Shown: piece after piece, positions 2,653-62,342 of the stretch
Layout: every line of letters begins with the position of its first letter
Numbering within the stretch: the stretch's first letter is position 1
Origin: an uncultured Gammaproteobacteria bacterium
Lineage (GTDB): Bacteria > Patescibacteriota > Patescibacteriia > Patescibacteriales > GWC2-42-12
DNA: 64,000 nt
Direction of reading: 5' to 3'
Assembly (NCBI GenBank): GCA_964560005.1
Contig: CAZLKB010000002.1
Span: 192,381-256,380 of the forward strand
Notes under the pieces: model-generated
Databases searched by the model: none
The model's input: only the letters and a program-made list of their open reading frames with translations
What the model was told of the DNA's origin: nothing
Program-made: the position numbers and the translations under genes

Positions 2653-2698
2653 AGATGCTGAATCCCGCCCGAGGCGGGCAAGCAAGTTCAGCATGACA
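2653..2698. repeat. Hairpin repeat AGATGCTGAATC[19-nt insert]AAGTTCAGCATGACA (upstream copy)
   Basis: Same 27 nt as 3033-3059, interrupted at 2665-2683 by the GC-rich palindrome CCGCCCGAGGCGGGCAAGC. It also sits where a cysS terminator would be. Confidence 0.85.
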
Positions 2699-2708
2699 TT
2701 GCATACAT

Positions 2709-2735
2709 TGTCATTCCGGCCTCCGAGCCGGAATC
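2709..2735. repeat. GTCAT-anchored hairpin TGTCATTCCGGCCTCCGAGCCGGAATC
   Basis: 8-bp stem ATTCCGGC/GCCGGAAT. The same sequence recurs at 62254-62282. Confidence 0.85.
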
Positions 2736-2742
2736 TATTTTT

Positions 2743-3021
2743 ATGAGGAATAAAATGGGCTATATTTACATTATGGCTAATAAACCAAATGGTGTTTTGT
2801 ATATTGGAGTGACTTCAAATTTAGAGAATAGAATTTATCAACATAAGAATAATCTTATACCGGGCTTTACCTCAAAATATAATTTGAAAAATATTGTATA
2901 TTATGAAGTCTTCGATGATATTAGAGAGGCGATTAGTCGAGAAAAACAATTAAAAAATTGGCGGCGGCAATGGAAAATTGCTTTAATTGAAAAGGAAAAT
3001 CCTGGATGGAGAGATTTGTAA
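2743..3021 (+). CDS. GIY-YIG nuclease family protein (UPF0213/YhbQ-like, 92 aa)
   Basis: GYIYIM...VLYIGVTSNLENRIYQHK...REKQLKNW motif pattern typical of small GIY-YIG proteins. Confidence 0.9.
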   Translation: MRNKMGYIYIMANKPNGVLYIGVTSNLENRIYQHKNNLIPGFTSKYNLKNIVYYEVFDDIREAISREKQLKNWRRQWKIALIEKENPGWRDL

Positions 3022-3032
3022 AGTAAAATAAC

Positions 3033-3059
3033 AGATGCTGAATCAAGTTCAGCATGACA
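3033..3059. repeat. Hairpin repeat AGATGCTGAATCAAGTTCAGCATGACA (downstream, uninterrupted copy)
   Basis: Stem ATGCTGAA/TTCAGCAT. Direct repeat of 2653-2698 minus the insert. Confidence 0.85.
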
Positions 3060-3069
3060 GTTCTAAAAT

Positions 3070-4026
3070 ATGAATAATTTTTGGTCCTCCTTCGCTGAAG
3101 CTTCGGAGGATAAAGCAAAATTGAAAAAGCCTATTTACGCTCTGGCGCCCATGGCCGGAGTGGCGGACAGCGCTTTCAGGCAAATCTGCAAAGCTTACGG
3201 CGCGGATGTAGTCTATAGCGAAATGGCCAGCGCCGCCGCGCTGGCTTATAATCCGAAAAAAACTTTGGAATTATTAGAATTTTCTAAAAGCGAACGGCCG
3301 TATGTGGTTCAACTGTTCGGCGCTAAGCCGGATCATTTCGCTCGGGCAGTAAAAATCGTGGAAAAAAAAATTAAACCTGACGGCATTGATATAAATTTCG
3401 GCTGTCCGGTTAAAAAAGTCGCTCGCCAGGGCGCGGGCGCGGTGTTGATGGATAATTCTAAATTGGCGCGTGAAATAGTTGAAGCGACCATAAATAACAC
3501 CAATTTACCCTTGTCAATAAAAATAAGATCACGAGCCAGAAAGACTACGGCGTTAAATTTTTTAAAAGAAATGGCGGGGTTAGATATAAAAGCCGTGATG
3601 ATTCACGGACGGACCATGGCGCAGGGCCAGAGCGGGGAAGTGGATTGGAAAACCATAAAACGAGCGCGGCCGCTGGTCAAAGGGATTTTAATAGCCAATG
3701 GGGGAGTGAAGGACGCGTCGGATGCCGTAGAATTGCTTAAAAAGACCGGAGCTGACGGAATTGGAATAGGTCAAGGAGCCTTGGGAAGACCGTGGGTTTT
3801 TGAGGAAGTTAGAAGTAAGAAGTTAGAAGTAAGAAGAAAAGAAGAAATTTTCAGGGTGATGTTGAAACATGCCAAATTGGCGGAGAAGCTGAACGGCAAA
3901 CAAGGAATAGCGGAGATGCGAAAACATCTATGTTGGTATGTGAGTGGTTTGCCTAACGCCAGCAGTTTAAGGGAGCGATTGGTAAAGGTGGAAAGTTTAA
4001 GTGATATAAAAAAGATATTGAGGTAA
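3070..4026 (+). CDS. dus: tRNA-dihydrouridine synthase
   Basis: APMAGVADSAFRQIC...INFGCPVKKV...HGRT motifs of the Dus TIM-barrel family. Confidence 0.9.
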   Translation: MNNFWSSFAEASEDKAKLKKPIYALAPMAGVADSAFRQICKAYGADVVYSEMASAAALAYNPKKTLELLEFSKSERPYVVQLFGAKPDHFARAVKIVEKKIKPDGIDINFGCPVKKVARQGAGAVLMDNSKLAREIVEATINNTNLPLSIKIRSRARKTTALNFLKEMAGLDIKAVMIHGRTMAQGQSGEVDWKTIKRARPLVKGILIANGGVKDASDAVELLKKTGADGIGIGQGALGRPWVFEEVRSKKLEVRRKEEIFRVMLKHAKLAEKLNGKQGIAEMRKHLCWYVSGLPNASSLRERLVKVESLSDIKKILR

Positions 4027-10093: not shown

Positions 10094-10447
10094 ATGAAGC
10101 AACTAGCTTGGCAAATTTGTGCGGTTATATTAATATTTATCGGTGAATTTATCGCCATTTATGCCGAAATTTTAACCTCAAAGCGTTTTTCCCTGGATCA
10201 AACTGCCAGTATTATATTAAAAGGATTTTTAGTTGCTGCAGTAGCTGGAGCTTTTTTAATCGCCGGCTATGCCTTAGGCTTTAAGGCTTTTAAGAATATT
10301 TGGATAGTCAGCGTAATTTCCATTACCTCGATTTTAATTATTGAACCGATTCTGGACTATACAATTTTTAATCAGTTGCCGACTCGGGGTGCTTTGATTG
10401 GTTTGATTTTAGGAGCCATGGGTTTTATATCAGCTATATTTTTGTAG
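10094..10447 (+). CDS. Small integral membrane protein (about 4 TM helices)
   Basis: Hydrophobic 117-aa ORF. Confidence 0.55.
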   Translation: MKQLAWQICAVILIFIGEFIAIYAEILTSKRFSLDQTASIILKGFLVAAVAGAFLIAGYALGFKAFKNIWIVSVISITSILIIEPILDYTIFNQLPTRGALIGLILGAMGFISAIFL

Positions 10448-10454
10448 ATTTTTT

Positions 10455-10518
10455 TGCGGGATCGTCCCAGTCATACGACGGGACAGATCCAATGGTAAGA
10501 CATCGCCCTCTGGAGGCG
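10455..10518 (+). pseudogene. Truncated 5' fragment of tRNA-Gln carrying a 23-nt palindromic insertion
   Basis: 10455-10467 plus 10491-10518 are identical to tRNA positions 1-42 of the intact gene at 10833. The 23-nt insert CAGTCATACGACGGGACAGATCC (10468-10490) lies in the D-loop. No T-arm or 3' acceptor strand follows. Confidence 0.85.
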
Positions 10519-10556
10519 CCCTATCATTCGATAGGGCGCCATGTCGAATGACATGG
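10515..10556. repeat. Two small palindromes at the break point of the tRNA fragment
   Basis: GGCGCCCTATC-ATTC-GATAGGGCGCC (perfect 11-bp stem) followed by CATGTC-GAAT-GACATG. Confidence 0.8.
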
Positions 10557-10571
10557 CGAGTTGATATTGTT

Positions 10572-10832
10572 ATGTATTATGTTTATATATTATTGTTAAA
10601 CAATAAACAGTTATATACTGGTTATACAGATGATTTAAAGAGGAGAATAGCAGAGCATAAAGCTGGTAGTAGTAAATTTACGAGCTGTAGATTACCTGTC
10701 AGTTTAATTCATTACGAAGCATATTTACTAGAATCTGATGCTAGAAGAAGAGAAAAATATCTTAAAACGACAGAAGGCAAAAGATTTTTAAGACAACAAT
10801 TAAAAGATTTAATAGAAAATATTAAAAATTAA
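10572..10832 (+). CDS. GIY-YIG nuclease family protein (UPF0213-like, about 86 aa)
   Basis: YYVYILLL..QLYTGYTDDLKRRIAEHK...RREKYLK motifs. The ORF track starts at 10548 inside the palindrome, so ATG 10572 is preferred. The stop codon abuts the tRNA. Confidence 0.85.
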   Translation: MYYVYILLLNNKQLYTGYTDDLKRRIAEHKAGSSKFTSCRLPVSLIHYEAYLLESDARRREKYLKTTEGKRFLRQQLKDLIENIKN

Positions 10833-10903
10833 TGCGGGATCGTCCAATGGTAAGACATCGCCCTCTGGAGGCGAGTATCTTGGTTCGAATCCAAGTCCCG
10901 CAA
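10833..10903 (+). tRNA. tRNA-Gln (anticodon CUG)
   Basis: Manual cloverleaf: acceptor TGCGGGA/TCCCGCA, D stem GTC/GAC, anticodon stem TCGCC/GGCGA with loop CTCTGGA (CTG at 10865-10867), T arm CTTGG-TTCGAAT-CCAAG. CCA is not encoded. Confidence 0.9.
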
Positions 10904-10911
10904 CAGCTATA

Positions 10912-10942
10912 AAATAACGCTAAAATTAAGCGTTATTTTTTT
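10912..10942 (+). terminator. Intrinsic terminator after tRNA-Gln
   Basis: AAATAACGC/GCGTTATTT stem followed by a T-run. Confidence 0.7.
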
Positions 10943-11003
10943 AATACTTTAAATATTAGCCTTGGTATGCTATACTTTAAACATAATAAATTAATAAAAA
11001 TAT

Positions 11004-51287: not shown

Positions 51288-51536
51288 GTTTAAAATGTAA
51301 AAATCAAAATGAAAAATGACAGTTTAAAATGTAAAATTGAAATACCGCTTTAATTATTATTACGAGCGGCTGACAAGAGCGAAGCAATCTTTGGTTCGAA
51401 GCAGTTACCCGAGATTGCTTAGTCGCGATGACAGAAAAATTTTAAATTTTACATTGTCATTGCTCTGCAATGACCCCGCATCTGCGAGGTGCTAGCGGAG
51501 CTGGTATTTTACATTTTGTGATTTAAATTTTTCATT
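51288..51536. repeat. Long AT-rich inverted repeat, homologous to 4598-4751, with nested GC-richer inserts
   Basis: Left arm 51288-51342. The right arm 51435-51461 + 51505-51536 is split by a 43-nt insert (51462-51504). The central module contains GCGAAGCAATCT...AGATTGCTTAGTCGC. Confidence 0.85.
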
Positions 51537-60180: not shown

Positions 60181-60273
60181 TCCCCAAACCCTGACAATCC
60201 CCCTTACCCTCCCGCATCAAGTGCGGGACAGGCTCTTTATCAAGGGGGTATCTCTCAAGGGGGCAAAAAAAAT
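60181..60273 (+). promoter_or_regulatory. Conserved 5' motif, second copy (CCCCCTTACCCTCCCGC...TTATCAAGGGGG...TCAAGGGGGCAAAA)
   Basis: See 45631-45684. Inner hairpin CCCGCA-TCAAGT-GCGGG. The CAAGGGGG element is duplicated. Confidence 0.45.
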
Positions 60274-62253: not shown

Positions 62254-62282
62254 GTGTCATTCCGGCCTCCGAGCCGGAATCC
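62254..62282. repeat. GTCAT-anchored hairpin (same sequence as 2709-2735)
   Basis: GTGTCATTCCGGCCTCCGAGCCGGAATCC. Confidence 0.85.
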
Positions 62283-62316
62283 AGATTTCACGAATGGTGT
62301 AAAAACTAAAAAAATG

Positions 62317-62342
62317 GATCCCGGGTCAAGCCCGGGATGACA
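62317..62342. repeat. GTCAT-anchored hairpin, variant, in inverted orientation
   Basis: GGATCCCGGGTCAAGCCCGGGATGACA. The reverse complement is TGTCATCCCGGGCTTGACCCGGGATCC. Confidence 0.85.

Follow-up and report, generated by a model that had tools for sequence, protein, structure and literature searches.

The 64,000-nucleotide (nt) stretch of DNA analyzed here (contig CAZLKB010000002.1; hereafter the window) carries a compact unit in which the gene for a predicted GIY-YIG nuclease, its only open reading frame (ORF), lies between a 5' tRNA fragment and an intact tRNA, as an earlier note on this DNA had described. The intact gene, tRNA-Gln(CUG), occupies positions 10833-10903 and was the sole tRNA detected in the window (ARAGORN; Rfam RF00005, 59.4 bits); like all features of the unit given below, it is located on the plus strand. 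A repeat search of the window showed that 10455-10467 is identical to 10833-10845 (13/13), i.e. to nt 1-13 of tRNA-Gln (linear numbering of tRNA nt is used throughout), and that 10488-10518 is identical to 10843-10873 (31/31; nt 11-41; blastn E 6.6e-12 within the window). Altogether, the fragment is an exact copy of tRNA-Gln nt 1-41 divided by a 23-nt insert, with a first segment (nt 1-13) at 10455-10467 and a second (nt 14-41) at 10491-10518 within the 31/31 repeat. The identity reported in the earlier note was therefore correct, while the extent it gave, nt 1-42, has to be shortened to nt 1-41. ARAGORN and Rfam recovered the intact tRNA alone, and no tRNA-like match was obtained at 10455-10560.

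The insert at 10468-10490, rightly described before as a 23-nt palindromic insertion in the D-loop, is a solo hairpin with the core TCATACGA at 10471-10478, as judged from the sequence and from single-strand folding; together with flanking tRNA bases it gives a bulged stem spanning 10459-10490. After tRNA nt 41, where the homology stops, a canonical double-hairpin module, known in 32 distinct versions with covarying stems, was found at 10517-10558. It is composed of CG (10517-10518), a first hairpin, HP1 (CCCTATCATTCGATAGGG, 10519-10536), CG (10537-10538), a second hairpin, HP2 (CCATGTCGAATGACATGG, 10539-10556), and CG (10557-10558). Both are perfect 18-nt hairpins (CCCTATC-ATTC-GATAGGG and CCATGTC-GAAT-GACATGG), HP2 being the HP1 motif in reverse-complement orientation, and the resulting palindromes extend over 10515-10540 (11-bp stem) and 10537-10558 (9-bp stem). 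Folded as single-stranded DNA, 10455-10571 reached -32.2 kcal/mol, compared to -15.7 ± 2.6 in shuffles (z = -6.4). The two further palindromes had already been noticed, as had a brief return of tRNA sequence behind them, which corresponds to CGAGT at 10557-10561 and matches tRNA nt 40-44. This match is ambiguous: since other loci read TTCG|module|CGAATCC, CGAGT could either be the tRNA resuming at nt 40-44 or a degenerate remnant of the T-loop (CGAAT/CGAGT).

The GIY-YIG gene follows at 10572-10832. Homologues begin with MYYVY and, therefore, the true start is the ATG at 10572 and not that at 10548. Its stop codon, TAA at 10830-10832, directly abuts nt 1 of the intact tRNA at 10833, in agreement with the earlier note. 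Downstream of the tRNA, a hairpin followed by a T-run (10911-10944; inverted repeat 10911-10924/10926-10939) is a probable terminator of the unit. A sigma-70 consensus scan yielded no recognizable promoter proper to the nuclease gene, and the promoter/terminator scan was uninformative, performing no better than on shuffles. The ORF list showed no integrase or recombinase in the unit or its immediate neighborhood and the repeated part is the 5', not the 3', part of the tRNA (nt 1-41), so that the unit is not of the integrase type, as had been proposed.

The 86-amino-acid (aa) product matches Pfam PF01541 over residues 1-70 (55.1 bits; cut-off 22.6), with nothing above threshold in NCBIfam. Y5, Y15 and G17 are invariant or nearly so, and R25, H29 and E49 are conserved at 98-100% (81 and 46 homologues); the protein thus retains the catalytic residues of the GIY-YIG superfamily and is a predicted nuclease. 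In phmmer searches, this single-domain protein matched PDB entries 1ywl (E 1.7e-8) and 1zg2. In line with these matches, a structure model with a predicted local distance difference test (pLDDT) score of 92 retrieved, in Foldseek order, 1zg2, 1ywl, Slx1 (6seh) and I-TevI, and it superimposed on 6seh with a root-mean-square deviation of 2.2 Å over 71 residues; Slx1 is a structure-specific nuclease. With one domain of ~90 aa and UPF0213 and Slx1 as nearest relatives, the protein has the features of stand-alone UPF0213, or prokaryotic Slx1-like, proteins; minimal prokaryotic GIY-YIG proteins were placed in the Slx1 cluster by Dunin-Horkawicz et al. (PMC1564403). The C-terminal DNA-binding domain of GIY-YIG homing endonucleases is absent from its 86 aa, where a single C-terminal helix follows the core. 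Exact look-up of the window protein, in its 86-aa and 94-aa forms, returned no record.

Searches with the window protein recovered at least 1324 homologues at E ≤ 1e-5, many of them 70-89% identical and labelled Patescibacteria, Parcubacteria or Moranbacteria; matches in phage records were only distant (<43% identity), and PADLOC and PHROGs gave generic GIY-YIG similarity only, with no membership in a defence system. We compared 82 loci (cited by L numbers), 80 of them metagenomic and two obtained via exact look-ups, with homologues 49-100% identical. A same-strand tRNA abuts the gene in 67 of the 82: in 52 it starts -70 to +60 nt from the stop codon, in 11 it ends 0-4 nt before the ATG and in 4 there is a tRNA on both sides. 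The 15 loci with neither arrangement are mostly short contigs or distant members. The tRNAs involved are Gln (CUG and UUG), Ser, Tyr, Lys, Leu, Cys, Gly, Ala, Arg, Thr, His and Phe.

An upstream partial copy of the abutting tRNA, 80-200 nt before the ATG, was present in approximately four-fifths of the loci in which the nuclease gene precedes the tRNA. The canonical order, exemplified by L093, L104, L119, L088 and L116, is tRNA nt 1-56 (...GGTTCG), HP1, CG, HP2, CGAATCC..., 5-25 nt, the ORF and the intact tRNA. In a mirror form (L140, L144, L145, L132 and others), the intact tRNA comes first and is followed by the ORF and a 3' copy running from GGTTCG through HP1, CG, HP2 and CGAATCC to the 3' end of the tRNA. 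Further, at least ten loci, including L088, L091, L093, L098, L109, L151 and L153, are two-sided, with the 5' half upstream and the 3' half downstream of the intact tRNA. In L092 and L093, the fragment, the hairpins and the ORF are repeated as a tandem array. The 112-nt tRNA-plus-hairpin part is identical between the L093 repeats, while their ORFs differ at 31/258 nt (23 synonymous vs. 5 non-synonymous codon differences); identical fragment-plus-hairpin parts beside diverged ORFs point to gene conversion.

Protein subfamilies correspond to the target site and the tRNA type. One cluster is found at the common D-arm site GGTTA|GAGC on Lys, Gly and Thr tRNAs, one on Ala, and a mirror-form cluster on Ser and Cys; the cluster of the window protein is mostly associated with Gln, and in some cases with Tyr and Ser. 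Distant members (~50-56% identity) lie away from tRNAs; a long inverted repeat encloses them in its loop (L152, L156, L161-L164). In L152 and L156 (both ~180-480), L161, L163 and L164, this repeat was observed to measure 13-17 bp, and the gene interrupted in L152 and L156, at ...NIA|EGFER..., resembles that of the four-helix-bundle '23S rRNA intervening-sequence protein'. A separate observation concerns a T-loop insert of ~85 nt (GGATTCGAAGGGCRCGAGTAG...GTGTGTAGYGCCCAGGCTYCGARTCGGAG...GGAATCC) in tRNA 3' halves downstream of intact tRNAs. Its consensus is matched by L098 (~1440-1530) and L153 (~1890-1980); the region in L082 (~3385-3590) is longer (~200 nt), agrees with it in the GGATTCGAAGGG start alone and can be assigned to it less clearly. 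The ~85-nt insert has no relationship to the 18-nt hairpins.

The inner stem and loop of the hairpins read GTC-ATYC-GAC, and a pair contains one hairpin in each orientation. Searching for the TCATNCGA core or its complement with a stem of at least 5 bp gave 110 hairpins in 214 kb of loci, 108 of them within 250 nt of a nuclease gene and the two orientations equally common (56 vs. 54). Within the 64-kb window, three copies of the core lie in the cassette, as we call the unit from here on, and two lie elsewhere, by chance inside coding DNA. For a covariation analysis, 85 distinct units were picked by the TCATNCGA core alone; T8, C9, A10, T11, C13, G14 and A15 are identical in all of them by construction and this offers no independent evidence. 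Outside the core, where no selection had been applied, the stem covaries: 131 double changes were counted, with 32, 36 and 27 at pairs 5-18, 6-17 and 7-16, and 87% of cells were paired compared to 71.5% in shuffles (0/500 shuffles as high) and 26-41% in slid registers. Because G-T wobble is nearly absent from the inner stem and the orientations are equally common, a constraint that acts on DNA fits better than one on RNA. The palindromes, which the earlier note had put down to decay, are thus a conserved, covarying module present in nearly all family members.

In the 32 distinct doublets, the forward hairpin always precedes the reverse one. The cores are 20 nt apart in 26 of the doublets, 16 of which read CG|HP1|CG|HP2|CG. 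The 2-nt duplication that borders the module is usually CG, with the T-loop (TTCG|AA) as the most frequent site. With flanks other than CG, the duplicated flank reappears in the spacer as its reverse complement, as in TG|CA|TG (L096, L081) and CT|AG|CT (L106, L107), and, therefore, the outer 2 bp of each 9-bp stem derive from the target dinucleotide. In the D-arm subfamily, which occupies Lys, Gly and Thr tRNAs, the spacing is 18 nt and the duplication is absent. The 23-nt D-loop insert of the window is a solo unit of the same kind and sits at the same position in L081 and L086; near-identical 23-mers occur at unrelated loci, some nested in the loop of another hairpin (L124, L147), and solo hairpins of 22-23 nt accumulate in dead halves, with three in L160 and L082. 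We also considered whether the flanking target serves as the template of the hairpin stems through fold-back synthesis; this is true of the outer 2 bp and, loosely, of the D-loop insert of the window, but not of stems generally, and the idea was rejected.

The origin of the fragment is most clearly seen in two relatives with the same gene order as the window (dnaX, cassette, tRNA-Gln), L081 (DnaX 77% identical; whole cassette 79% nucleotide identity) and L086 (66% and 74%, respectively). In L086, the fragment has the acceptor strand TGGGAGA and the anticodon stem GATGA/TCATC, compared to TCCGAGG/CCTCGGA and CATCC/GGATG in the intact tRNA. At the 3' side of the latter follow GTTCG, a degenerate hairpin pair and then CGATTCCTAGTCTCCCAGC. 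When the two halves were joined without the hairpins, ARAGORN folded a tRNA-Gln(CUG) with a 7/7 acceptor stem, identical at 53/72 positions to the intact gene located between them. Separate pseudogene pieces drifting apart could not have retained mutual complementarity while one in four positions of the working gene changed and, therefore, the two alleles already differed when the splitting occurred. In L086, a resident tRNA-Gln is interrupted by a segment bearing the nuclease gene and its own tRNA-Gln. The 5' halves of L105 and L099 likewise come from another tRNA-Gln allele than the intact gene. Since the fragments of these three loci differ in allele from the intact genes and the L086 halves can be rejoined, the original gene is the more likely source of the fragment, which would be its displaced half, and the intact tRNA would travel with the nuclease gene; the previously suggested history, in which the unit duplicated the 5' two-thirds of a tRNA, is probably wrong. 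The L081 fragment is a mosaic, its first 13 nt being the window-type acceptor strand and the part after the D-loop hairpin matching its own intact tRNA, which suggests that gene conversion has acted on the two tRNA copies.

The window copy itself is old, vertically inherited and trimmed of its 3' half, and is not a recent insertion, since two relatives have it at the same dnaX-linked locus and synonymous divergence is saturated. Among the window, L081 and L086, the ratio of non-synonymous to synonymous divergence (dN/dS) is ~0.1, with a saturated dS of 1.1-1.4; the nuclease protein is under strong purifying selection. More distantly related genomes show the empty state. From 80 dnaX loci retrieved, 45 were scanned for tRNAs, and 33 of these 45 contain tRNA-Gln, nearly always directly downstream of dnaX and on the same strand, with no tandem tRNA-Gln pair in any of the 45. 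tblastn with both GIY-YIG proteins of the window (the second is described below) and with a neighboring 117-aa ORF found no GIY-YIG gene beside dnaX in the 80 loci, nor the 117-aa ORF. The dnaX-tRNA-Gln locus is thus empty in distant relatives and occupied in the window, L081 and L086, and the relatives indicate a single ancestral tRNA-Gln after dnaX, with neither a tandem pair nor a GIY-YIG gene, as the history put forward in the earlier note entails. The modules of the window (10517-10561) and L081 (3017-3064) were observed to share an identical HP1, but they lie 6 nt apart on the tRNA (after nt 41 vs. nt 35), and flank, spacer and flank differ in concert (CG|CG|CG vs. TG|CA|TG). Either relocation or conversion plus compensatory change may account for this offset; relocation from nt 35/36 to nt 41/42 in the window was set aside as a separate proposal, being inseparable from the second possibility. 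Tracing the origin of the intact tRNA by acceptor-stem types was also abandoned, as tRNA-Gln stems are too variable between lineages.

Taken together, we interpret the unit as a selfish, homing-type cassette that carries a spare tRNA and is one copy of a family common in the Patescibacteria, which are ultra-small bacteria, a combined statement to which we assign a probability of about 0.6. The architecture and the family-level pattern can be stated with high confidence. The cassette comprises the gene for the ~86-aa Slx1/UPF0213-type nuclease, a complete tRNA gene flush with it and the two 18-nt hairpins, and would occupy a tRNA gene of the same isoacceptor, broken at CG (mostly TTCG|AA; after nt 41 in the window). 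The 5' half of the broken gene would stay upstream (10455-10518 in the window) and, in fuller copies, the 3' half downstream, with the hairpin pair filling the break between the 2-nt duplications. The intact tRNA (10833-10903) would supply the cell with tRNA-Gln, making the disruption of the target harmless. For the mechanism, we propose that the nuclease cuts the CG of an unoccupied tRNA gene with a 2-nt stagger, as is usual for GIY-YIG enzymes, and that an occupied genome then provides the cassette that is copied into this break, by homing or gap repair, with conserved tRNA sequence as the homology; repeated cuts might lead to gene conversion between tRNA copies and to tandem amplification. 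We give this cut-and-copy mechanism slightly less than an even chance. The nuclease gene is probably transcribed by read-through together with the tRNA and freed by tRNA processing.

Several points weigh against this interpretation. The 2-nt duplication is an indirect trace of a staggered cut, and cleavage is deduced from sequence. The intact tRNA has an uninterrupted T-loop, so that a T-loop cutter would cut its own spare copy; tandem arrays suggest that such self-cutting occurs, yet it is awkward for a homing element. The protein is a bare catalytic domain, whereas classical GIY-YIG homing enzymes have a DNA-binding domain. Homing genes usually decay after fixation, and the vertical inheritance of the window copy and its two relatives under long-term purifying selection is atypical of them. 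In the window, moreover, the 3' half is missing and the fragment does not differ from the intact tRNA over 44 nt, and for this reason local duplication, gene conversion and a same-allele or imported tRNA are indistinguishable there. Finally, no near-identical pair of genomes with and without the cassette was found and, therefore, the ends of the element are not defined. The intact T-loop of the spare tRNA, the missing DNA-binding domain and the long vertical inheritance keep two other explanations alive.

The first is modelled on REPINs, the hairpin doublets formed by repetitive extragenic palindromic (REP) sequences, and their RAYT transposases. A long-resident GIY-YIG enzyme would move or maintain hairpins that insert at CG in single-stranded loops of tRNA genes; dead tRNA copies would collect them, as insertions into live ones would be lethal, and the nuclease gene would seldom move. 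The hairpins indeed come in inverted doublets as REPINs do (PMC3337134), and the accumulation of solo 22-23-nt hairpins in dead halves (L160, L082; nested in L124, L147), the duplications bordering the inserts and the vertical inheritance of the window clade under strong purifying selection all fit this explanation, as does a second GIY-YIG family of the window that is bordered by dispersed REP-like hairpins. The cassette hairpins, however, are not dispersed, being bound to the cassette in 64 kb and close to the gene in 108/110 cases elsewhere, and neither the abutting intact tRNA nor the heterologous split gene of L086 is explained. We consider this alternative unlikely.

The second, which we regard as improbable, would make the unit an immobile expression device, with a host repair nuclease co-transcribed with the tRNA and the fragment and hairpins acting as leader or processing signals (tRNA punctuation, mRNA stabilizers or attenuators). 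It would account for ORFs that are flush with the mature tRNA ends (at distances of 0-6 nt from nt 1 or of 0-4 nt from the 3' end), for the lack of a convincing promoter or ribosome-binding site upstream and for long-term purifying selection. However, stems that are almost purely Watson-Crick and evenly oriented (56 vs. 54) suit DNA better than RNA, and the module changes its place, lying upstream of the ORF in one form and downstream of it or inside its end in the other, and even on 3' halves without an adjacent ORF. Further, more than ten different tRNAs have the gene beside them, and orthologous sites without it exist.

The scenario of the earlier note taken literally, in which a chance local duplication of the 5' two-thirds accompanied the insertion of the nuclease gene and was followed by random palindromic decay, agrees with a window copy that is truncated, interrupted and identical to the intact gene where the two can be aligned. 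It is highly improbable, given that the same hairpins with fixed geometry and covarying stems occur at ~80 independent loci and at specific tRNA positions, and that the D-loop insert is common to relatives whose cassettes differ at 21-26% of nucleotide positions. More improbable still is a tRNA with an intron, or what is left of an integrase-type island, for both of which a tRNA gene is a typical location, since the 71 nt of the intact tRNA form a complete gene, none of the covariance models reads the region as one intron-containing tRNA and no group I/II intron was matched even at E up to 10, and an island would be expected neither to lack a recombinase gene nor to repeat the 5' instead of the 3' part of the tRNA.

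The earlier note had also suggested a structure-specific target. This is plausible, as the inserts lie mostly in tRNA loops and the protein is Slx1-like, but the proposed recognition feature, GACAT followed by the anticodon hairpin, is not the part that recurs; the recurrent target is CG, usually TTCG|AA of the T-loop. A broader and, in our view, doubtful proposal can be formulated, namely that stand-alone UPF0213/Slx1-like GIY-YIG proteins are the enzymes of an unrecognized class of hairpin-based mobile DNA. In the cassette family, the nuclease would recognize DNA hairpins and cloverleaf loops, cut at CG, install hairpin units with outer pairs templated by the target dinucleotide and spread as a tRNA-splitting cassette that brings a spare, while the sister family at 2743-3021 would be the long-missing enzyme of CGTC-tagged REP repeats (Neisseria dRS3, Rickettsia RPE types).

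To place the homing-type cassette among known systems, we compared it with the closest of them. In the atp6/ORF360 mobile element of Allomyces macrogynus (Paquin and Lang), an endonuclease ORF of the GIY-YIG type reportedly travels with a replacement part of its target gene; the displaced resident part is said to be left as a pseudogene, and small double-hairpin elements are reported from the same genomes. That case differs from the cassette in being mitochondrial, in its protein-coding target, in a replacement that is partial and in hairpins that are not known to be a fixed component. Another such system is SegB of phage T4, a free-standing GIY-YIG gene within a tRNA gene cluster (PMC2330249; PMC13096335). 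SegB promotes the inheritance of itself and of neighboring tRNA genes (PMC2330249) and can drive segmental amplification (PMC13096335), which may be compared with the tandem arrays of L092 and L093; it is reported to cut tRNA-gene DNA with mostly 2-nt 3' overhangs (PMC2330249). In contrast to the cassette nuclease, SegB is a phage protein with a DNA-binding part, has neither the hairpin module nor a split or duplicated target tRNA, and its cleavage has been demonstrated, while that of the cassette nuclease is deduced from sequence.

REPIN/RAYT systems share with the cassette the inverted hairpin doublets, the single flanked enzyme gene and long vertical persistence (PMC3116915, PMC3337134); correspondingly, the 32 distinct doublets found here are arranged forward-then-reverse within 250 nt of the enzyme gene. 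Their enzyme is an HUH tyrosine transposase, whereas the only ORF of the cassette is a GIY-YIG domain; REPINs are dispersed in hundreds of copies, whereas the cassette hairpins stay in the cassette; and tRNAs are not involved. Slx1 and bacterial UPF0213 proteins such as YhbQ have the same minimal GIY-YIG fold and catalytic residues (PDB 6seh, 7cq3, 1zg2, 1ywl; PMC1564403), and Slx1 acts on branched and stem-loop DNA, but with the partner Slx4 and a RING domain of its own. No link of UPF0213 to tRNA genes or hairpin modules was reported in the literature searched. Lastly, rRNA-gene insertions with GIY-YIG ORFs in the candidate phyla radiation (CPR) affect the same group of organisms and likewise structured-RNA genes, are not introns and are located mostly at stem-loop tops or bases (PMC11270868); they differ in their rRNA hosts, no spare copy or hairpin pair is described for them, and they were judged to be outside a homing context (PMC11270868).

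In none of the systems compared does a minimal GIY-YIG gene occur together with a complete spare tRNA, a resident tRNA that is split and a fixed hairpin doublet. No description of GIY-YIG genes with split or partial tRNA genes or with the hairpin pair was found in the literature, coverage of which was incomplete, so that an earlier description is possible. The cassette is apparently undescribed and would be filed among selfish nuclease cassettes that carry a replacement of their target. UPF0213/YhbQ-type GIY-YIG proteins are a very widespread orphan family. If our interpretation is true, they would gain a concrete function and substrate, i.e. tRNA-gene loops and a defined 18-nt hairpin. It would also add a third way of occupying an essential gene: introns and inteins splice out, islands carry a part of the tRNA, and the cassette appears to bring a whole replacement. 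Further, it would account for the stray tRNA fragments and palindromes beside Patescibacteria tRNA genes that standard annotation ignores, and it suggests a route for the horizontal movement of tRNA genes between Patescibacteria. A minimal nuclease with a short structured DNA site could also yield a compact, structure-guided DNA cutter.

The second GIY-YIG gene of the window (ORF 2743-3021, within 2656-3059) belongs to a different family, with 37% identity. It is bordered by (C/T)GTC-tagged REP-like hairpins, GTCATTCCGGCCTCCGAGCCGGAATCCAG, found twice in identical form at a distance of 59 kb, and GATGCTGAATCAAGTTCAGCATGAC, whose upstream copy contains a nested 19-nt GC palindrome. Such hairpins lie also at 62256-62285, 62315-62342, 60205-60232 and 51450-51476. 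The GTCAT hairpins elsewhere in the window, to which the tRNA segment of the cassette had been likened in the earlier note, belong to this other family and look like CGTC-tagged REP repeats, not like the module of the cassette. Homologues of this family reach up to 70% identity in Shewanella and are distributed over many phyla; those of L166 and L169 are likewise surrounded by hairpins of this type. CGTC REPs have been reported without a dedicated transposase (Di Nocera 2013, PMC3733652), and this second GIY-YIG family may be their enzyme, as its hairpins match their type.

Two minor observations concern the spacer between dnaX and the cassette. In the window, a 117-aa predicted membrane ORF without a Pfam match lies there (10094-10447); it is missing from L081 and L086, where the spacer is short and hairpin-rich. 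In L081, this spacer is a long interrupted inverted repeat (2826-2958; GTCATTGCGAGCCCCGAC...GTCGGGGCGAAGCAATCTCACG ... CGTGAGATTGCTTCGTCGCTCCGCTCCTCGCAATGAC), which represents another GTCAT-tagged palindrome type.

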